DNA from: Bdellovibrionota bacterium FG-1
GTDB lineage: Bacteria; Bdellovibrionota; UBA1018
Direction: 5' to 3'
Length of the DNA: 64,000 nt
Assembly: GCA_051382295.1 (NCBI GenBank)
Contig: JBBCAW010000012.1
Span: forward strand, 64,001-128,000
Shown piece after piece: positions 1,431 through 26,264 of this stretch. The notes under the pieces were generated by a model, which saw only the letters and a program-made list of their open reading frames with translations, was not told the origin of the DNA and did not search any database. The position numbers and the translations under genes were made by a program. How positions within the stretch are numbered: the stretch's first letter is position 1; the number at the start of each line of letters is the position of its first letter.

Positions 1431-4400
1431 CCCGTACTCACGGCTGGCCAGATGAGTATTAATGGGGGAGCCGCCAGTACGACCAGCAACTACGTGCAGG
1501 TTTCTCTTAGGGCGACTGACTCGTTGACGAATATCACCCAGTTTTGCCTCAAGACAAACAGCACGACTCAACCCACGAGCTCGGATGCCTGTTGGGTGTT
1601 GGTCAACGCACCTACTCCAGGGCTCACGGCAGCCTTAAGTCTCAATCTGACGAATTTTTCTTACCTGCTTGGATTTGTCACAGGGAATTACACCTTTTAT
1701 GCTTGGGTGCAAGATCAACTCGGCAACATCTCCTCTCTCACCAGTGCTGGCGCAGGCACGGCGGGCGTGGATAAAGCCACAATTACCTACAGTCCGGGGC
1801 AGCCTCCGTCGGTGATTAACGTCAGTGCGACGAGCACCGATGTGCCAGCCTCTCCTTTCGCCTCGACCGATCTCTATGTCACAGCGGGCAGCACGGTCTA
1901 TATTCGTTGGGATGTCGCCACCGCTGCCAATGGTCTGGGCGCCAATCCCGTCACTCTTGCTTACACGACCAACGACAGCACCTTCACGGAAATTGCCTCT
2001 AACGTCGCCAATGCCGCCAATGGCTGCACGGTCGATGGGTCGCATACGGGTTGCTATGTCTGGACGAATGGCTCACCGACGAGCAGTTATTATAAAGTTC
2101 GAGTGTCGGTCCTGGATTCAAGCGGGATGGCCACGGTCGCGACGTCCAACCCGCTGAATGTATTTCCGCCCCTCAATATTCTTGCCGGAAACACCGACCC
2201 CGGCACCAACGGCAGCGCAAGCGCGGCGATGTTTTTTAACGTAGAAACTATACAAAGCGCAGATCCTCAAAGTTTTGTGGTGACCCCCTCTGGGGTGGTT
2301 TACTTTCGCGACAAAAATCGAGGTATTCTGGTGGTTGATCCCAGTAACGGTATTCAGAAAATACTAGTAGCGATGGATTCGACCCAAGCCTCGAATAATG
2401 GAGATGGGGGCCCCGTGAGCAGTGCCACCGTCAAGCAGCCGAACAAGATCGCGCTTGATTATCAAAATAGGCTTCTGGTGTTTGATTATGATCGCATTCG
2501 TCTGATCGACCTGAATGCCTCACCGATCACCATCAATACCTTCATCGGGGGGGGCGGCTCCACGTTAGACGGCGTCGCGCCCACCAATGTTTTGATTACA
2601 TCGCCGGGTGTCATGGGCGCCATAAATACTACTGCGGCGATGCCTTTTTTCCCGCTGCCCAATGGCGACCTTTACTTTCAATCTGAAAATTATCACGCTC
2701 TGATTAGCGCTGGCGCCCGCGTGCGCGTCTATCACGCCCCGAGTACTCCGGCCAAGGCTCAGGATAATACAGTGACGAGTATCACGCCCTCGGGTACTGG
2801 TATTTACGGTAATCCGGCATTTGCCCTTGCGGGTTGCTTACTCGAGCATTTTGGATTCACCTTCGATCCGCTCACCTCGAACATTCTTTCCGTGCAAATG
2901 ATTTGCTATGACGCTAATAGTGATCCGAACGTGAGTTTAAATCCAAGCACTTTTGTTTCGACGGCACCGCATCCGCCTACGGTATTTACCTATGGTAGAG
3001 TCACTTATAAGACACTTTCGCGAACAGGCGACATTTGGATCACCAGTGATTTCTCTGGAAATATCGCAAAATATATCCCGAGCACCAATACCTGGACCAC
3101 TGTGGTCGGCACAGGCACTGTCGGGGTGTGCGAGGATGGTACCGCCGCACTGTCTTGTAATATTGATCCAAAAGATACGTTTGTGACGGCCACGGGCCAG
3201 GTTTACTTCATGGATCGTGGCCGACTAAGAACACTGGATAGTTCGAACCAGGTCGTCACGATCATTGGGCAGTTGAGGTCCTTTGGCGATGGGGGTAACC
3301 CGCTCTCGGCTAGATTCAACAGCATCTACTCGCTGGACAAAACCACCGCCGATGACATCATCGTTTATGATAGTGGCGAAAACCGACTGCGCCAATTGAC
3401 GATTGGCGGAACGATTCAAACCATCGCCGGAAATGGCAATCCTCAGACTCAAAACACAACCGCTGCCGCGACCACGCAAGGAATATATGCAGCTAGTACG
3501 GCTGCTGGTTTGATCAGGGTAAATCCGTCAACTGGCGACGTATTTTCCACAATCAACGGTTACATCATGAAGCTTGATCGCAGCACCAGTAAATGGGTTG
3601 CTCTTGTTGGCGGCGGGGCTACTTCATATTCTTTGGCGGACAGCCTCACCGGAACCAACATCAGCATGGGAAGTTATACCGGTGGTATTCTCGGATTTGA
3701 CGGCACAAATCTCTTGATGGTGCAAGGTCGCTATAGCGCCGGAGTGTTCGACTGTTTCCTTAAGAACTACACCATTACTAATGGCACGCAATCGCATGTT
3801 GCGGGATTTGTGGGGAGTTCATGCGGCGGGTTGAATGCCGATACCACTCCCGTCACGAGCAGTGGCACGCACGCCAATACCTCAGGAACTCTTAATATGA
3901 TTCCAGCGTACTGGGACGGCCCTAATAATAGGTGGCTTTCGGTGGACAGGGCGGTGGCGCAGACCACTGTGCGCGCTCTCAATATCGGCGGCAACCTCGG
4001 CCCCCTCACGACCACTACCTATGGCATTGGGGCGTTTACCTATCGCAAAGAGGGTTCGAACGAATACCTGTATTATTGCAAGAACTCCACCTCCGGTACT
4101 TTACAGAGAAAAAATATCACGGCAGGCACGGAAAGTTCGCTGGCGTGGCCCATCTCCTCGCTCTTCTGTAGTGGTTACAGCCTTCTCTATGATAGCACTC
4201 GCAACTCACTGATTTTTCCGTTCACGCAAAATGGCTTGGGCGGCGTGGCAGAGTACATCCTGCCTGGCCCGATCGCGATTTCAAATGGCACGCAAAATAC
4301 CGCGAGCGGAGTCAACACCGTGACCTTTAACGGCACGTGTGGCGCCAACGTCAGCACGATCTCCGTGACCGGCACCTCGACGGGCACCACCGCATGTACC

Positions 4401-7154: not shown

Positions 7155-7413
7155 CTGTGCGCGCGCTCAATATCGGCGGCAACCTCAGTACCCTCACGAT
7201 CACTACCTATCAGATTGGGGCGTTTACCTATCGCAAAGAGGGTTCGAACGAATACCTGTATTATTGCCAGAACTCCAATTCCGGTACTTTACAGAGAAAA
7301 AATATCACGGCAGGCACGGAAAGCTCGCTGGCGTGGCCCATCGCCTCGATCTTCTGCAGTGGTTACAGCCTTCTCTATGATAACACTCGCAACTCACTGA
7401 TTTTTCCGTTCAC
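7155..7413 (+). pseudogene. 259-bp isolated copy of adhesin segment 3967-4225
   Basis: Colinear with no indels; 16 mismatches by manual alignment; no native start or stop. Confidence 0.9.
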
Positions 7414-16379: not shown

Positions 16380-17357
16380 ATGGCGTGGAAAAAGAAGGAA
16401 AAACTCATCAGCCGTGAGGAGGCGGTGGCCGCGGCCAAAAAAGAATTTGCGCCGTATTGGGTCGGGTCTGAGCCGCTCGTGGCCGGAGTCGTGACGCCTG
16501 AGGGGGGGGTGAGTGTTCATCCGCTGGACCTGACTTTTGAAAAGAGTGCTTGGATCTTTATACTGGTCGATTTAACGACTTTTTCCGGCGAGTCCGCTTT
16601 AGATATCGCGCGGGACTGGCATCGGCGCTATTCAGGTTACAGCGTTAATTTTGTTTTGATCACTCGTTCGACTTACAAATTTTTAGATACCATTGCGACT
16701 TTTCAGCCGATGTTCAAAAAACATGGGTTGATTTTTCCGGCAGTATTGGATCACGAGGGGCTTTTGTATCGTGCTTTCAATGCTTCTCCCGCCATTCCCA
16801 AAGTTGTTCTTCATGCTAAAGGTAAAATTATTTTTGAAAAAGTTGGACCTCAATGGTTTGAAGGTGCTGAAAGTCTGCTTCAACATTATTTGCGGGAGTC
16901 GGATCCGGGCTTGCCGTTTAACCTGCCTTTTGAGGGAACCCATGAATTGCCGGCTGATCAACTTCGAGTGGAGCTGGGTCGCTCCACTCGCCCCAAAGGT
17001 TTGGCTTTTGGTGGAAAATGGACCCAAGAGCAGGACTGTATCGTCGCTCGCGATGGCACAGCCGTGATGCGGTTTAAGAGTCCCTCCGCTCGGATCTCGT
17101 TCGTAGCGGAGCGTCTTTCGACGGAAGACCGGCGTTCGCGAATTAAGATCGAGGCCAATCGGGATTCGGCTTTCGAGGCGATCTCCGGTGCGGATTTGAC
17201 GATGGCCGAAGATGGTTCGTCTGAGCTCAAGGTGGCTGGACCCATGATTTATCACGCGCTCGTGAACCTGCCGGAGCGTTTGCGGGAAATAACTCTTAAA
17301 TTTCCCGATGCCGAGCGGTTTCCTGTAGCGCTTTATGGGATCAGGTTAGGTTCTTAA
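16380..17357 (+). CDS. Hypothetical protein with degenerate thioredoxin-like fold (DipZ C-terminal-like)
   Basis: 325-aa ORF coupled to the MFS gene; peroxiredoxin-like layout without CxxC. Confidence 0.45.
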   Translation: MAWKKKEKLISREEAVAAAKKEFAPYWVGSEPLVAGVVTPEGGVSVHPLDLTFEKSAWIFILVDLTTFSGESALDIARDWHRRYSGYSVNFVLITRSTYKFLDTIATFQPMFKKHGLIFPAVLDHEGLLYRAFNASPAIPKVVLHAKGKIIFEKVGPQWFEGAESLLQHYLRESDPGLPFNLPFEGTHELPADQLRVELGRSTRPKGLAFGGKWTQEQDCIVARDGTAVMRFKSPSARISFVAERLSTEDRRSRIKIEANRDSAFEAISGADLTMAEDGSSELKVAGPMIYHALVNLPERLREITLKFPDAERFPVALYGIRLGS

Positions 17358-18285
17358 GAACTTTTGCTACGGAGTCTCGCGGTTTTTTTGGCAGTCCTGC
17401 TTCGTCGGCAAATTTGCAGAACTGGCCAATAGCATCCCGCACTTCATCGATGATTTGAGGTGAATGTTTTAATCCGACCTCTAGCGCGAGGGTTTTTAGA
17501 TGGTCTCGAGTAGGATTGCGTCCTTCGCCTGCAACCAGCATCATATGTTCCCCGCCCGGCCCTGTTGAGTAGGTCAAATCGTAGGCGGGACTAGGGTGCC
17601 AAATCCCTTTTTCATTCATGAGAAATGCAAAATTTCGAGCATGATCATCGCGGTTTCTGCTGAAAACATTGAAACAGGCACGTCGAAACATTTCTGAAAC
17701 GTCAGCTTCATTTCGAGTCAGCTTGCGAGTCACTAATAAAAGTTCGCGATAGCCAAGAGCAGGGTAGGTGTGCCCCTTGAGGGGATCCACCGAGGGCAAT
17801 CAAATGGTCGAGGTCCTGACCCTCCACCTGATCTAGAACCATTTGGATCTCTGAAGCGACCTCGTCGAGATCAACGACTGAGGGCTGGTCTTGTTCGAAT
17901 TCTGGCTCATAAGTGAGAGCGCCCATTCCGTGCGACCCAACGTAGGCTAGACGATCCAGGGGCCCCAAAGATCCCGACGGAGGCGCCCGGCCCTTGCGAT
18001 TCGTCGTTCCAGCAACAAACGCCCCCAGCCGTCTGGCAGGCTGTCTTCGAAAACCCCCATTAAGCCCTGAAAAATAGCTGGATCACCGACCTTCACCCCG
18101 GAAGCAAGAGGTAGATTGAACGGCGAAAGTTCGAGGCCACGGTTTATAAAATCGGCGTCGTATTCGAAGAGAATTTCTCGATTTTTTTGTGCGAGCCTTC
18201 CAACTTTTTGCTGAACTCCTTCTTGGAGTTCTAAAAAGACTGTAAGGAGTTGGATAGGTGCGCGGTTTTTTTTGAGTATCATCAT
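17341..18285 (-). pseudogene. hipA: HipA family toxin, frameshifted and internally deleted
   Basis: Three pieces in different frames: FEDSLPDGWG (N-domain), DRLAYVG--GMGALTYEP...GGSPQGA, and NRDDHARNF...W-PSPAYDLT. Central kinase core missing. Confidence 0.85.
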
Positions 18286-18614
18286 TCCACTCCGGTCCCT
18301 CCGGTTCTTATGGCCCGTTTCCGTGAGGTGACTTTGTTCTGTCCCAGTGCCTCATCCAGGGAGGTATATTTGGGCGTTTCAAAGAGGCGCTCGAATGTGC
18401 TTTCGGCCCCAAGTGCGGTGGCGATCCGCAAGGCATTTTCAACAGAGACGTGCCCCGTTTTTTCAAAGCGGTGAAGCGTTGCAACACCGATGCCGGAGCG
18501 GTCCGCATGCTCCTGTTGGGTCCAGTTTCGAGAGAGTCGTAGAGCCTGAGTGCGTTGACCAATCGCTAAAAGGATATTTGAATAGGATTCAAGGCCTGTC
18601 CTAGAATTGATCAT
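18282..18614 (-). CDS. XRE-family HTH regulator, HipB-like antitoxin
   Basis: RLSRNWTQQE-ADRSGIGVATLHRFE-TG HTH; overlaps the hipA start (ATGA). Confidence 0.8.
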   Translation of the reverse strand: MINSRTGLESYSNILLAIGQRTQALRLSRNWTQQEHADRSGIGVATLHRFEKTGHVSVENALRIATALGAESTFERLFETPKYTSLDEALGQNKVTSRKRAIRTGGTGVE

Positions 18615-21594: not shown

Positions 21595-21771
21595 AAAAGG
21601 TCGATTCTCCTCGTTAAAATGGAATTTCCACGGAAATCGGTAATCTAATACAGAAATGGTCGGATAAAGGCAACTGGAAAAAACCGTCGCTGTTTTTAGT
21701 CGGAAAATTGAACCAAATCGAGCAGAACTCTCGTCCTGAGATCTCCGGTTAAACGCTGTACCCGGATCACC

Positions 21772-21912
21772 TCAGAGCTGTCCTAAGCAGTCGGCAATTG
21801 TTTTGACTAGAAAAACCAAGAGCTTGGCGAGGACAAAAAGACGCCAAATTCTAAATTTAAGTTTTTCGAGTCGGATCCGATGAGCATAATAGATGGTTCT
21901 ATTACTTTTCAT
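21772..21912 (-). CDS. 46-aa basic/hydrophobic peptide, candidate type I toxin (MKSNRTIYYAHRIRLEKLKFRIWRLFVLAKLLVFLVKTIADCLGQL)
   Basis: AAGGAGG 6 nt before the ATG; same length in all three repeats; several synonymous substitutions between copies. Confidence 0.8.
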   Translation of the reverse strand: MKSNRTIYYAHRIRLEKLKFRIWRLFVLAKLLVFLVKTIADCLGQL

Positions 21913-21915
21913 AGG

Positions 21916-21950
21916 ATGCCTCCTTTCTTTTTAGTGAAGAAGGGAGGTAT
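21916..21950. promoter_or_regulatory. Hairpin containing the peptide SD (anti-SD CCUCC / SD GGAGG)
   Basis: atgcctcctttctt-N7-aagaagggaggtat; the stem is invariant in three copies and only the loop varies. Confidence 0.7.
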
Positions 21951-22120
21951 TTCCGTCTACTCTGCGCGGTTTGGCAGGAACTTCAAAAGCAAAATTAATG
22001 CCGATGCCTGCTGGAACTTACAAAGGTTTTATCCCGTGGTCCGTCCGGATTTCGGTGAGGGTATTCGAAATTGGGACCAATAGGGTGTGCACAAGTCGTG
22101 GATGATGTTATATAACGTCG

Positions 22121-22648
22121 ATGAATATTGATCTGCGCCCCATCCATGTCAAAGATTGGAAATTGCTTTTGAAGTGGCGCAATGATCCTCAAGTGACGCG
22201 TGACCTTGCTTTTCAAGCGATGTCTGAGGAAAGGGTCAGGCAGTTCATTCAGGAGAAGGTTGACTCGACGACAGATCGGACTTTTGTGATTGAATGTGAC
22301 GGGCAGGTGATCGGATATACTTTGATTGAGTCAGACGTTCTGAATAAAAAATGCGAAGTCGGCATCATTATTGGTGAGAAAGGATATTGGGGAAAGGGGA
22401 TCGGAAAGCAAGTTTGTCGAAAGATCACCGACATTGCCATTTCGGAGATGGGTTTACACCGGGTTTTGGCCGTGGCTTCTGAAAGAAATCTCGGATCAAT
22501 TCGTTGTTTTTTGTCTCAAGGATATCGCGAAGAGGGGCGTCTGCGGCACGCCAACTATCGCGACGGTAAGTTTTATGATCTTGTGCTGTTGTCTATGTTG
22601 TCCCACGAGTGGAATCATATACCAAACCGAGCAGAATTCTCTTCCTGA
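22121..22648 (+). CDS. GNAT acetyltransferase, RimJ/RimL family
   Basis: IDLRP----D---L-KWRND, IG---YWGKGIG, N-GS-R-F---G--EEGRLR. The last 28 nt lie inside repeat copy 2. Confidence 0.9.
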   Translation: MNIDLRPIHVKDWKLLLKWRNDPQVTRDLAFQAMSEERVRQFIQEKVDSTTDRTFVIECDGQVIGYTLIESDVLNKKCEVGIIIGEKGYWGKGIGKQVCRKITDIAISEMGLHRVLAVASERNLGSIRCFLSQGYREEGRLRHANYRDGKFYDLVLLSMLSHEWNHIPNRAEFSS

Positions 22649-22971
22649 GATCTCCGGTTAAATGCTGTACCCAGATCAACTCAGATTTGTCCTAAGTAGT
22701 CGGCTGCAGTTTTGACTAGAAAAACCAGAATCTTGACGAGGACATAAAGACGCCAAGATTTAAATTTGAGTTTTTCAAGTCGGATCCGATGAGCATAATA
22801 GTTGTTTCTATTACTTTTCATAGGATGCCTCCTTTCTTTTTGACGAAGAAGGGAGGTATTTCCGTCTACTCTGCGCGGTTTGGCAGGGACCTCAAAAGCA
22901 AATTTGATGCCGACGCAACCTCGAAATTACGAGGCTTCAGGGCTGTTACCCGTCCGGATTTCGGTGAGGGT
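22621..22971. repeat. Long direct repeat copy 2 (351 bp, right end replaced)
   Basis: Colinear with copies 1 and 3 up to ggtgagggt, then unrelated sequence. Confidence 0.95.
22681..22821 (-). CDS. 46-aa candidate type I toxin, copy 2 (MKSNRNNYYAHRIRLEKLKFKSWRLYVLVKILVFLVKTAADYLGQI)
   Basis: Same SD, start and stop positions as copy 1. Confidence 0.8.
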   Translation of the reverse strand: MKSNRNNYYAHRIRLEKLKFKSWRLYVLVKILVFLVKTAADYLGQI

Positions 22972-23055
22972 GACTAGAATCCGGACCCGGAAAGTTCAAA
23001 AGCCCCTCCTCCCTTCCCAGCCCAAAAGCAGCGACCAGGAAGGAGGGGCGCAGTT

Positions 23056-24333
23056 TTAGTTTTTGTAAATCGGCAAAATTCCAAAGGGAGCAGCAGGGGC
23101 TTTTGAATAAAATAACCGACGTCCCCAAGGTGCTTTTTGTTTGCTGACGATTTTACCGTCACAGCTGACTTCGGTGCGAAATCCACCCTGATCAAATATC
23201 CCACCCAATGGCCAATCTTCCGGAGTATCGGTACATGAGGTGGCTGAGCATTCAATAGGCCAAAAGGGTCCCCCGGCCTCTTTCTGTCCTGGGGCGAATT
23301 GAGTGAAACAAACCAATCCGAAAGTTCGGCACTCAGGATTCGAGAATTCGACGTGAAGATGGTCAACGACTCCAATCGCTTTCACGGTTTTGGTGAGGAG
23401 GGCGTTTCCAAAAAAATCACGACAAACAGCGACGCATTGATTGTTCATATCCTTTTCGGTATTCGGGACTCCCGAAGGATAGGCATCACTTTCTTTTTCC
23501 TCCCAATATCTAATAAAATCTAAGCCAATGGTTTTACAGGCGCCGCCGGTTGAGACTGGCTGATAAATGACGGGTAATGGCTGATTGCCGGATTTTTCCA
23601 CAGAAACCTGCCAGCTGAAATGGGGCGCAATGGGTTGAAGTTTGTTTCAGTCAGAGGTGGGGGCGAATAAAAAGCCGACCATCTTTCGGGCTTCTTCGGA
23701 GTCATGAGCTTCGTAGTAAAGACGAGCTAGGCCATAAAGCACTTCGTGAACAAAAAAGGCGGCTTGATCGGTAGGTGTGAATTTATCAAATACGGTTTTA
23801 GAGATCCGGAGTGTGCCATCCGATTCGTAAAATCCTGCGTATTGGAGCTCGCACCCTTCTGGGATCACAGCGGGAAAGTGCGAGCCTAAATCAGAAACCC
23901 CGGGCATCGTGACACCAGCAGGTAGGAAATTGACCTGGGTCTTGAATTTTATGAGGAGATCCACAAAGTCCTGTCCGATGTATGGATTCCACTGGGCTAA
24001 TCGTGCTTGGATTTGATTGATTTGCGCATCAGCGCTGTCTTGAGATTGCGGAATCGTCAGGCCAAAACGAATTTCGGCTTCATAGAGGTCGAGAAGGTGA
24101 GCGGAAACGACCTTGCGATCAGTTCCTAGGCAGACCACCGACGCTCCGCCTCCGCTCGAGCCCGGCCCTGTTGAAGTGCTCGTTCTGCCTCCGCCGATTT
24201 TTTCGGTTACTACTGAGGTACCCAGAGCGGGTGGGCGATCGGATGGGGAGGGCGTGGTCCCTTGTTTACTGCAGGCGCAAAACACCAAAAGGAATCCGAC
24301 GGTTGAAAGAAATTTTAGGGCAGAGGATTTCAT
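23056..24333 (-). pseudogene. Lipoprotein (GGG-x-VVC...LLDLYE type) split by an in-frame TGA at 23647-23649
   Basis: Signal peptide ending in FCAC. ORFs 23647..24333 and 23056..23601 share a frame and are separated by only one TGA. Confidence 0.6.
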
Positions 24334-24476
24334 ACATTTTTCCGTTTCCGCTGCGATTTAACAAGAGGAGCATCATTTAGCAGCGTTTCGCCACGTAAAA
24401 AATGGCTGATTTTTAGGAGCTAAACTAGATAATAATTATGTTTTTATTACCTTAATTGTTATAAATTATTACTCAT

Positions 24477-25286
24477 ATGGGTGAGCAAAGTGTTTTTTCT
24501 TTTTCAGACTATAAGCAGTTTCTTTGTCATTATGTGGATGTTCACAAAAAAGAGCGGGGCAGTATCCGGCGGATGGCTGAAGCGGCGGGTTGTCAGCGAT
24601 CCTACATGTCCCAAGTTTTAGGCACTCATGTGCATTTAACACGGGAGCAGGCGTGGGGTCTGTGTTCTTTGTTTGGTTTTAAGGATCTTGAGTCGCAATA
24701 TTTTATGGTGTTGATCGATCTCGCGCGCGCGGGAAGCAAAAAATATCGGGAAAATTTGGAGTCGCAGCGAAAAATGTTAAAACAAAGGTCCGAGGATCTT
24801 TCGGAACGCACCACGCGTAAGCGGATCGAGTCTGAGGATTTTGCGATGGAGTATTATTCGGCGTGGTATTGGAGCGCGATCCATATTTTAGTTTCTATTC
24901 CGGGCTTTCAGACTGTGAAGTCAATTGCGGCAAAGTTGTTTCTTGATGAAAAAACAGTCGAAAACAGCCTTAAACGATTGGCTGTGATGAAATTGGTCAC
25001 TCAAGAAAAAGATCGATGGTGTTTCAGGCAAGAAAGTATTCATGTGCCAAAGGATTCGCCTTATGTGGTCTTTCATCATCGGAATTGGCGAGATCGGTCG
25101 GTTTTATCTTCACAGGCCTCGGATCACGAGGGGATTCATTACACGATGGTTCAATCCGTGAGTCGAGACGTGTTGCCTCGAGTTCGTCAGCTTTTTCTGG
25201 ATGCTATAGAGCAAGCCAATCGTATTGCTGGCCCTTCTGCTCCTCAAGAGTTGGTCGCGATTAACTGTGACATTTTTTCAGTATGA
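24477..25286 (+). CDS. TIGR02147/DUF4423-like HTH protein
   Basis: DY--FL, SY-SQVL-----LT-EQA, YYS-WY-SAIH, H-NWR pattern typical of this Bdellovibrio-expanded family. Confidence 0.75.
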   Translation: MGEQSVFSFSDYKQFLCHYVDVHKKERGSIRRMAEAAGCQRSYMSQVLGTHVHLTREQAWGLCSLFGFKDLESQYFMVLIDLARAGSKKYRENLESQRKMLKQRSEDLSERTTRKRIESEDFAMEYYSAWYWSAIHILVSIPGFQTVKSIAAKLFLDEKTVENSLKRLAVMKLVTQEKDRWCFRQESIHVPKDSPYVVFHHRNWRDRSVLSSQASDHEGIHYTMVQSVSRDVLPRVRQLFLDAIEQANRIAGPSAPQELVAINCDIFSV

Positions 25287-25313
25287 ATAAGAAACCCAGC
25301 ATAGGGTTTTAAA

Positions 25314-25700
25314 ACCAAACCGAGCAGAATTCTCATCCTGAGATCTCCGGTTAAATGCTGTACCCGGATCACCTCAGATTTGTCCTAAATAGTCGGCTAT
25401 TGTTTTGACCAGAAAAACCAAGATCTTGGCGAGGACAAAAAGACGCCAAGATTTAAATTTCAGTTTTTCAAGTCGCGTCCGATGAGCATAATAGGTTGCT
25501 CTATTATTTTTCATAGGATGCCTCCTTTCTTTTTGACGAAGAAGGGAGGTATTTCCGTCTACTCTGCGCGGTTTGGCAGGGACCTCAAAAGCAAATCTAG
25601 TGCCGATGCTACCTCGAAATTACGAGGCTTCAGGGCCGTTACCCGTCCGGATTTCGGTGAGGGTATTCGAAATTGGGACCAATAGGGTGTGCACAAGTCG
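25314..25700. repeat. Long direct repeat copy 3 (387 bp)
   Basis: Colinear with copies 1 and 2. Confidence 0.95.
25374..25514 (-). CDS. 46-aa candidate type I toxin, copy 3 (MKNNRATYYAHRTRLEKLKFKSWRLFVLAKILVFLVKTIADYLGQI)
   Basis: Same SD, start and stop positions as copies 1 and 2. Confidence 0.8.
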   Translation of the reverse strand: MKNNRATYYAHRTRLEKLKFKSWRLFVLAKILVFLVKTIADYLGQI

Positions 25701-25704
25701 CAGG

Positions 25705-26070
25705 TCAGTCAAAGCGGCAAAATACATCCAGATCTTTGCCCCCTCGGGTATAACTCAATTGCTGGTATCGCTTCCTCTCAGTAACAAGCGTCGTAGATAC
25801 TGCTTTTGTTATCGTATCCGTGATTCCCATAGTCATTACTTTTGAGCCGTCTGACATGGCGGCATAGACAAAGACGCCGTTAATTTCCTTTTCGACGGAA
25901 TTTTTATTTTCCTTGGAAATGGCCCCTTCAATCTGTTGTTCGGGAGTATCGGTACCTCGAATCATGCACTTAACTTTCTTTGGAGGCGGGCTTGTCTTCT
26001 GCGCCGTAGCGTAGGATGCGCCGAAAAGAATTTCGGAAATACAGAATAAACCGATAGAAAGTAGCTTCAT
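25705..26070 (-). CDS. Small exported hypothetical protein
   Basis: Likely start MKLLSIGLF with a signal peptide; Cys near both ends of the mature domain. Confidence 0.55.
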   Translation of the reverse strand: MKLLSIGLFCISEILFGASYATAQKTSPPPKKVKCMIRGTDTPEQQIEGAISKENKNSVEKEINGVFVYAAMSDGSKVMTMGITDTITKAVSTTLVTERKRYQQLSYTRGGKDLDVFCRFD

Positions 26071-26264
26071 AAATCCAATGATACAGGCAAGCCTGATAAC
26101 TTTGTCAACCCACCGCTCATAGTGCACCAAGTCGCACAGCCTTGTTCGTTGCTTGCCCCACGTAAAAATTCCTGCTCTTGCCTTTTTGAGTTCCCTTGCT
26201 AGAGTCGGGTGCTTCACAACTCGATCATCCACGGCTACGACGACTCTGGGAGAATTTAGAGACG

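Follow-up and report, generated by a model that had tools for sequence, protein, structure and literature searches.

A repeated Bdellovibrionota cassette with sigma-54- and FliA-type promoter motifs: a candidate type I toxin-antitoxin family

Three copies of one cassette and its wider family

The window, by which we mean the whole 64,000-nucleotide stretch of Bdellovibrionota bacterium FG-1 analysed here, contains three copies of a unit of about 380 bp, starting at 21711, 22620 and 25313 (offsets 0, +909 and +3602). Each copy holds a 46-codon ORF on the minus strand with a strong SD.

21711 to 22090, minus strand: cassette copy 1, the whole conserved unit (dyads, sigma-54-type promoter, leader, ORF, trailer)
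21772 to 21912, minus strand: ORF of copy 1, 46 aa, net charge +8, with a basic amphipathic N-terminal half and a hydrophobic C-terminal half; candidate type I toxin
22620 to 22986, minus strand: cassette copy 2
22681 to 22821, minus strand: ORF of copy 2
22898 to 22911: sigma-54-type site of copy 2
22766 to 22773 and 22785 to 22792: antisense -35 and -10 motifs of copy 2
22952 to 22986: dyads of copy 2
25313 to 25692, minus strand: cassette copy 3
25374 to 25514, minus strand: ORF of copy 3
25591 to 25604: sigma-54-type site of copy 3
25459 to 25466 and 25478 to 25485: antisense -35 and -10 motifs of copy 3
25645 to 25679: dyads of copy 3

In the stretch between yajQ and smc (21700-26260), lower-GC accessory genes are enclosed by the three cassettes. 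They encode a GNAT acetyltransferase (22121-22648), a hypothetical protein of 228 aa, a DUF4423 protein (24477-25286) and a hypothetical protein of 175 aa. DUF4423 has about 20 paralogs in the same genome, several of them near cassettes (contigs C62, C89 and C130). Elsewhere the window holds a 291-bp tandem repeat in four copies (1-1173), a 259-nt repeat in two copies of 94% identity (3967-4225 and 7155-7413) and, on the minus strand at 17341-18614, a group of short ORFs which, judged by eye, resemble a fragmented HipA-type gene beside a small HTH gene.

In the FG-1 genome an iterated profile search returned 27 matches, comprising 25 full-length ORFs, three of them in the window, and two fragments; a third cassette fragment was found besides these. 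The cassette occurred in 16 of 301 genomes sampled across the phylum, one of them probably a false match inside a long ORF, and in 24 of 127 sampled across the class, with all carriers from both samples falling in the same order. A profile search of 1.84 billion proteins yielded 58 similar short proteins; the records of family members are titled Bdellovibrionota (Oligoflexia, Bdellovibrionia, Bacteriovoracaceae), with one titled Lysobacteraceae. Our working set comprises 89 copies from 22 genomes of this one Bdellovibrionota order; it omits nine matches whose stored DNA lacks a start codon, together with one spurious ORF, and of the 28 loci from family-member records 15 were re-scanned for it. 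Comparison of the peptides with Pfam, NCBIfam, PHROGs and the PDB gave nothing significant, and Rfam gave no match over the window at its gathering threshold, only chance-level matches to sok (17.5 bits against a cut-off of 59) and ZFAT.

The peptide is typically about 45 aa long. In the 69 copies that pass an intactness pattern, which also dropped nine intact ones, its length is 38-51 aa and the median charge is +7, and 87% contain a 19-residue window with hydropathy of at least 1.6. A dN/dS of 0.42 over 69 close pairs, and of 0.36 in the hydrophobic half, shows the ORF to be under purifying selection. The structure model is a single helix (pLDDT 83.6); the best ESM Atlas score was 0.84, with low recognition, and the nearest Pfam-labelled ESM cluster, TisB, scored 0.77, a weak match below the tool's lead level. 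A cationic and hydrophobic single helix is the shape of membrane-acting type I toxins, and on this shape alone, with no sequence match to a known toxin, we infer that the peptide may be toxic. Two other reading frames were set aside: a 62-67-aa plus-strand ORF (21880-22083), which has an ATG and at least 40 codons in just 14 of 89 copies, and a 26-aa minus-strand frame with no SD-like sequence before it.

Truncation has truly occurred in 11 of the 89 copies, which have lost the hydrophobic half. Broken copies (C9:1686 and C96 in FG-1, and ten elsewhere) keep the half with the leader and antisense promoter and lack the hydrophobic C-terminal half. This would be expected of decaying toxin genes, a reading open to detection bias. 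In FG-1 we also observed tandem cassette arrays with a period of about 430-450 bp on contigs C5, C22 and C62, and six diverged copies in which the start of the helix is less hydrophobic and rich in Gln and Lys.

The genes beside the cassettes vary and include PIN, HipA-like and nucleotidyltransferase genes together with housekeeping genes. A leader-peptide or attenuator role was rejected because neighbours and orientations vary and because no cassette lies closer than 1.5 kb to yajQ in any of 13 relatives.

RNA structure on the two strands

The structural elements of copy 1 are these:

21961 to 21974, minus strand: 5' arm of the end-to-end helix, with which the predicted mRNA opens (~16 nt); self-folding is also possible
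21713 to 21726, minus strand: 3' arm of the end-to-end helix, where sequence conservation stops (predicted mRNA 3' end)
21736 to 21775, minus strand: trailer hairpin with a near-invariant loop motif (21755-21763)
21915 to 21951, no strand assigned: SD-sequestering hairpin (SD ~21919-21927, anti-SD 21939-21948, variable loop), uninterrupted over 16 bp on the antisense strand
21875 to 21917, minus strand: hairpin pairing the AUG and first codons with codons 8-13, from predicted folds and the paired/unpaired codon test
21947 to 21960, minus strand: short stem with an ANGGAN loop resembling a CsrA site; the stem is 3 bp in the window copies

An initial annotation of this DNA had drawn three helices around the ORF (SD hairpin, end-to-end helix and trailer hairpin) and made them depend on covariation in a larger alignment. 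All three are present in every window copy, and the larger alignment bears out the end-to-end helix, which has 12 Watson-Crick pairs, one wobble and one mismatch in copy 1 and 13 Watson-Crick pairs and one mismatch in copies 2 and 3. Across the 25 FG-1 copies, 96.6% of alignment cells pair and 8 of 13 pairs change on both sides, a degree of covariation reached by none of 500 shuffles; slid registers pair at no more than 46%, and RNAalifold found the same pairs unprompted. A 12-bp helix test was passed by 64 of 87 copies and by 3 of 261 shuffles, with the three window copies falling just below its threshold because of their constant mismatch. Nor does any of 200 shuffles fold as well as the 281-nt unit, whichever strand is taken (z -4.5 on plus and -4.2 on minus), although z-scores here overstate the case, the copies being related. 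The cassette is real, covarying and lineage-restricted.

Wobble pairs show on which strand this helix lies. Among 52 distinct end-to-end helices, reading on the ORF strand gives 40 G·U pairs and 4 A·C mismatches, and the balance favours the ORF strand in 17 of 19 genomes and the opposite one in none. The trailer points the same way: 56 of 61 copies have their lower MFE on the ORF strand (-18.1 on minus and -13.8 kcal/mol on plus in copy 1), the inner helix has 16 G·U and 4 A·C on that strand among 17 distinct helices, and the one variable stem pair in the window, in copy 2, is a G·U on minus. An ungapped trailer test was passed by just 26 of 77 copies, and RNAalifold on a MAFFT alignment recovered three pairs, because variable insertions break the register; the trailer structure therefore rests on the per-copy tests. 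With both of these helices assigned to the ORF strand, the long lock is a feature of the mRNA.

The same evidence bears on a DNA-level explanation, in which the cassette would be a mobile repeat (a MITE with terminal inverted repeats, or an attC-like site) and the end-to-end helix its repeat ends. In keeping with this, copies are both dispersed and in tandem, those in the window bracket accessory genes, and one orthologous site is filled in the relative G219 and empty in G033, with about 430 bp inserted just after a terminator. We regard it as extremely improbable, however, because the arms covary and tolerate G·U on one strand, and because the promoter and dyad, although placed beyond the arms, move with them. 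Moreover, no transposase or integrase occurs among the 44 neighbours scanned, no target duplication is evident at the G219/G033 site, and a search of plasmids and viral contigs found no cassette.

The SD hairpin behaves differently. The initial annotation had claimed that wobble in this RNA favours the antisense strand, and that claim is half wrong because only the SD hairpin leans antisense. In the window this hairpin forms 16 bp on the plus strand, four of them G·U, and is more stable there (-22.7 kcal/mol) than on minus (-12.2); one end-to-end pair of copy 1 leans likewise. The trailer and, family-wide, the end-to-end helix go against the claim, and the family-wide count in the SD core, 18 G·U and 25 A·C on the ORF strand, is not significant (p = 0.36). 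The core itself is well kept, with 78 of 88 copies passing an ungapped 10-bp test. Leader folding gives the antisense strand the lower MFE in 54 of 61 copies and the better z-score in 41 of 61; by genome, the z-scores split 9 to 10 between the strands. A permissive helix scan of the SD region (161 A·C and 51 G·U) was discarded in favour of the anchored test, since shuffled controls scored equally and it extended helices out of register.

On the minus strand these hairpins would close the ribosome-binding region: opening it is predicted to cost a median of 16.4 kcal/mol in 67 copies and 8.0 in 80 ordinary genes, supporting the earlier proposal that the toxin mRNA is translationally locked. Removing the 3' arm leaves the SD closed in equilibrium folding (median 16.5 against 16.4 kcal/mol), and a truncation scan agrees; such folding does not exclude kinetic or protein-aided opening of the SD.

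A second GGA lies in the loop of the short stem before the anti-SD, in register in 70 of 88 copies and 25-35 nt from the GGA of the SD. It is kept in 32 of 38 copies that have no alternative UCC partner, and its wobble is on the mRNA strand (11 against 3). Taken together, the ANGGAN loop and the SD GGA resemble a two-site CsrA target, and FG-1 encodes csrA, fliW and flgM, which lie together on contig C7. The genome also has six flagellin genes, and the leaders of several contain hairpins with a GGA in the loop, as is typical for CsrA targets.

Across 78 copies the trailer loop motif hardly varies, and it may be a site for an RNA-binding regulator; it matched none of the ribozyme and riboswitch identities considered for it. 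On the minus strand of contig C62, a FliA-type flagellin gene (start at 105242) has the same motif at the head of a 9-bp hairpin in its 5' UTR, some 113 nt before the start. The motif so shared, together with the conserved GGA loop, could be taken to mean that the RNAs matter most and the peptide is secondary: the sigma-54 transcript would serve as a decoy for CsrA, or the FliA transcript would act in trans as an sRNA. We consider this very unlikely: each RNA has one or two GGA loops, and the ORF has a strong SD and the dN/dS given above.

Promoter motifs and the antisense strand

Upstream of the leader and inside the ORF of copy 1 lie the following elements, which, like the AUG hairpin and the GGA loop, had no place in the initial annotation:

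21989 to 22002, minus strand: sigma-54-type -24/-12 promoter (GG-N10-GC), predicted start ~21977
22043 to 22077, no strand assigned: two dyad sites (22043-22057 and 22063-22077) whose centres lie ~73 and 93 nt before the predicted start; candidate enhancer
21857 to 21883, plus strand: FliA (sigma-28)-type promoter inside the ORF, TTAAG-N15-CCGAT (-35 at 21857-21864, -10 at 21876-21883), predicted start ~21891
21891 to 21982, plus strand: predicted antisense RNA of ~90 nt with two stem-loops, covering the AUG, the SD and the whole leader

Sigma-54 polymerase requires an activator, and its start can be placed by the -24/-12 rule. In 55 of 63 copies GG-N10-GC precedes the 5' arm by 12-16 nt (2.8% in a shuffled null), so the start would fall within about 4 nt of the arm. 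In the window the predicted start (~21977) is three bases before the 5' arm and conservation stops just past the 3' arm, which would give an RNA of ~267 nt; no TATAAT-type housekeeping promoter precedes the 5' arm. The genome encodes rpoN and 25 strong sigma-54 activator domains.

A 15-bp dyad (at most four mismatches) lies upstream in 22 of 25 FG-1 copies, where 0.6 would be expected, mostly in pairs spaced by about 20 bp. Of 48 copies from other genomes, 16 have it upstream (1.2 expected), leaving 32 that do not, and 9 have it downstream (about 1 expected). Some genomes have a dyad-like site downstream of the 3' arm and not upstream of the promoter. Nor is the dyad exclusive to the family, to which 17 of the 58 intergenic sites in FG-1 belong, with 41 outside it; other sigma-54-like sites have a weak dyad in 6 of 77 cases. 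We consider the dyad a candidate enhancer for a sigma-54 activator, and at the motif level the elements of a sigma-54 promoter (GG-N10-GC, enhancer and a genome-encoded activator) are all present.

Inside the ORF, 83 of 88 copies reach a FliA consensus score of at least 9 of 11 on the antisense strand, compared with 3 of 88 on the sense strand and 25.9% of synonymous recodings. Where the -35 bases are predicted to be unpaired in the mRNA, third positions remain biased at Leu (48 of 68, 15.5 expected) and Lys (37 of 39, 21.5 expected), while unpaired control codons show no bias (5 of 11 against 4.4, 8 of 13 against 6.4 and 1 of 14 against 3.8). In this codon test at least five copies are anchored on the wrong Arg, and the copies are not independent. 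Three copies alter the protein (KLK to RTL or KTL), and their box reads TAAAG. Conservation of the -10 is confounded because that half forms the base of the AUG hairpin, the third position of its Arg being predicted paired in 83 of 88 copies. Of seven flagellin-domain genes examined, three flagellin genes are preceded by the same box, and FG-1 encodes fliA. In Bdellovibrio bacteriovorus, 92 of 140 mapped attack-phase start sites have TTAAG-N16-CCGATA (PMC3627812). The cassette's box agrees at the motif level with this TTAAG/TAAAG-N15/16-CCGATA pattern, subject to the overlap of its -10 with the mRNA helix. An SD hairpin and two promoter-like motifs at fixed positions are shown for the family by comparing its copies.

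The antisense start could also be read differently. A TATAAT-like hexamer lies 2 nt beyond the -10 box (21885-21890), and the same kind of module might draw its antisense RNA from this sigma-70-type -10 box (NATAAT, in Tyr-Tyr codons), leaving the FliA look-alike a by-product. NATAAT is conserved on the antisense strand, copy 2 has one weak sigma-70 match, and PMC5416894 places the isoA1 promoter at a TATAAT inside the aapA1 ORF. The hexamer has neither a TTGACA-like -35 at 16-18 nt nor a TG extension, however, and its Tyr-Tyr third positions are unbiased when unpaired, so that the mRNA hairpin explains them and the bias of the unpaired TTAAG is left over. We judge a sigma-70-type origin unlikely.

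In silico, an RNA starting at ~21891 forms the long SD hairpin and a 3' hairpin in nearly all of ten copies folded, with z-scores of -4.3, -2.6 and -3.0 in the window copies; no U-tract terminator was seen for it or for the mRNA. Because the antisense signal is confined to the leader, any antisense RNA would be too. The initial annotation had envisaged a structured plus-strand RNA over the SD and the ORF, and the part of this that holds is a predicted structure over the SD. A Sib-like span of the ORF is not supported, in view of the strand asymmetry and of the candidate promoter's position inside the ORF, and the RNA would be IsoA-like, ~90 nt over the leader. The SD-hairpin-loop region has 22 variants among 26 FG-1 copies, and this variation could give copy specificity.

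The cassette might instead make no antidote RNA at all: a sigma-54-induced mRNA, gated by structure and by CsrA, would encode a small non-lethal membrane peptide (a regulator or a secreted antimicrobial), and the codon bias would reflect a rod-like fold. Most biased synonymous sites are indeed predicted to be paired in the mRNA, the GGA loop is conserved with its wobble on that strand, and the SD wobble is not significant family-wide. Set against this are the bias of the -35 bases where unpaired, a promoter score above that of recoded ORFs and the lower MFE of the antisense leader. Patchy expansion to 25 copies and decay of the hydrophobic half also suit a selfish toxin-antitoxin module better, and we find the absence of an antidote rather unlikely.

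Likeness to type I systems and a possible mechanism

The closest parallel is aapA/IsoA of Helicobacter and Campylobacter. As described in PMC5416894, PMC6733600 and PMC8594479, it shares with the cassette a multicopy chromosomal mRNA of ~250 nt, a 5'-3' long-distance helix, SD-sequestering hairpins and decayed copies; its antisense promoter in the ORF and two-hairpin antisense RNA over the 5' UTR have predicted counterparts in the cassette. As in aapA, the cassette's 5'-3' helix encloses the ORF on the mRNA strand. The cassette peptide is longer (~45 aa against 30) and has no family match, the PDB, Pfam, NCBIfam and Rfam having been searched. The promoters differ as well: those of the cassette are of sigma-54 type with a dyad and of FliA type, whereas aapA and IsoA have TATAAT-type promoters and are both constitutive (PMC5416894); T1TAdb scans for TANNNT boxes (PMC8594479). 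The cassette additionally has the GGA loop and the conserved trailer loop motif, and its SD is not freed in silico, whereas 3' trimming frees that of aapA. We therefore propose that the cassette works like aapA/IsoA and do not file it as a member, given its longer unmatched peptide, its other promoters and the lack of in silico unlocking by trimming.

In hok/Sok, the mRNA of a membrane peptide is locked by 5'-3' fold-back and overlapped by an antisense RNA, and the cassette shares the lock and, as predicted, the overlap. Sok lies 5' of the ORF without overlapping it (PMC8594479), whereas the cassette's candidate antisense promoter is inside the ORF. The cassette has no conserved mok-like frame with an SD, and no homology to Sok or Hok was found. 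The toxins of tisB/IstR-1 and dinQ/AgrB are transcribed conditionally, under LexA control. Conditional toxin transcription is likewise predicted for the cassette, with sigma-54 in the place of LexA, and the peptides have in common one amphipathic helix with a central basic residue; the antitoxins of these two systems have no overlap with the mRNA (PMC8594479). Like ibs/Sib, the cassette forms tandem and dispersed repeats with a predicted overlapping antisense RNA. Sib spans the entire ORF (PMC8594479), whereas the 3' half of the cassette ORF and the trailer favour the sense strand and the candidate antisense promoter lies within the ORF. Searches of the open literature, subscription papers being outside the scope, yielded no description of this cassette family or of a type I pair driven by sigma-54 and FliA, and no type I family in Bdellovibrionota.

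Two general features of type I modules are thus present, a small hydrophobic peptide ORF with an SD under selection and, in silico, a primary mRNA with a sequestered SD; the patchy multicopy spread and the decayed copies were also counted for this reading. Transcription of a complementary antisense RNA is a prediction favoured by the promoter-like motif and the antisense fold. In its core form, that the cassette represents a new type I toxin-antitoxin family, we consider the reading likely. For the fuller statement, in which the toxin mRNA comes from the sigma-54 promoter and the antisense RNA from the FliA-type promoter in the ORF, we hold a slight lean in favour.

We propose that an enhancer-binding activator at the upstream dyad would cause sigma-54 polymerase to fire at ~21977, producing an RNA of ~267 nt that begins with the 5' arm. 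The SD and AUG hairpins would lock this mRNA during synthesis and the end-to-end helix would lock it afterwards, with CsrA possibly bridging the GGA loop and the SD GGA 25-35 nt away. Unlocking to a translatable mRNA might occur, by analogy with aapA, through 3' trimming. The ~90-nt two-hairpin antisense RNA from ~21891 on the plus strand would pair with the leader, and its variable loop would make it the antidote of its own copy. Where the antisense RNA falls behind, the peptide would enter the inner membrane as one helix and growth would stop.

A broader and more doubtful idea is that the family is wired into the flagellar and life-cycle cascade of Bdellovibrionota. Sigma-54 would activate as many as 25 loci and so fill the cell with locked toxin mRNAs, the FliA tier, gated by FlgM, would supply the antidote, and CsrA-FliW would be a third input. 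The whole would form a developmental checkpoint that arrests or kills cells whose motile programme is unfinished or whose FliA is off. The genes fliA, rpoN and csrA are present in all 16 carrier genomes tested, a comparison that offers no negative contrast, and FliA is the attack-phase regulator in Bdellovibrio. If both promoter assignments are right, toxin release would be tied to a signal and to a phase of the life cycle, in contrast to the type I systems of the papers cited here, which are driven by housekeeping promoters. The 25 diverged copies in one genome are also a natural test set for copy-specific antisense RNAs, and the family would bear on the purpose of chromosomal type I systems.
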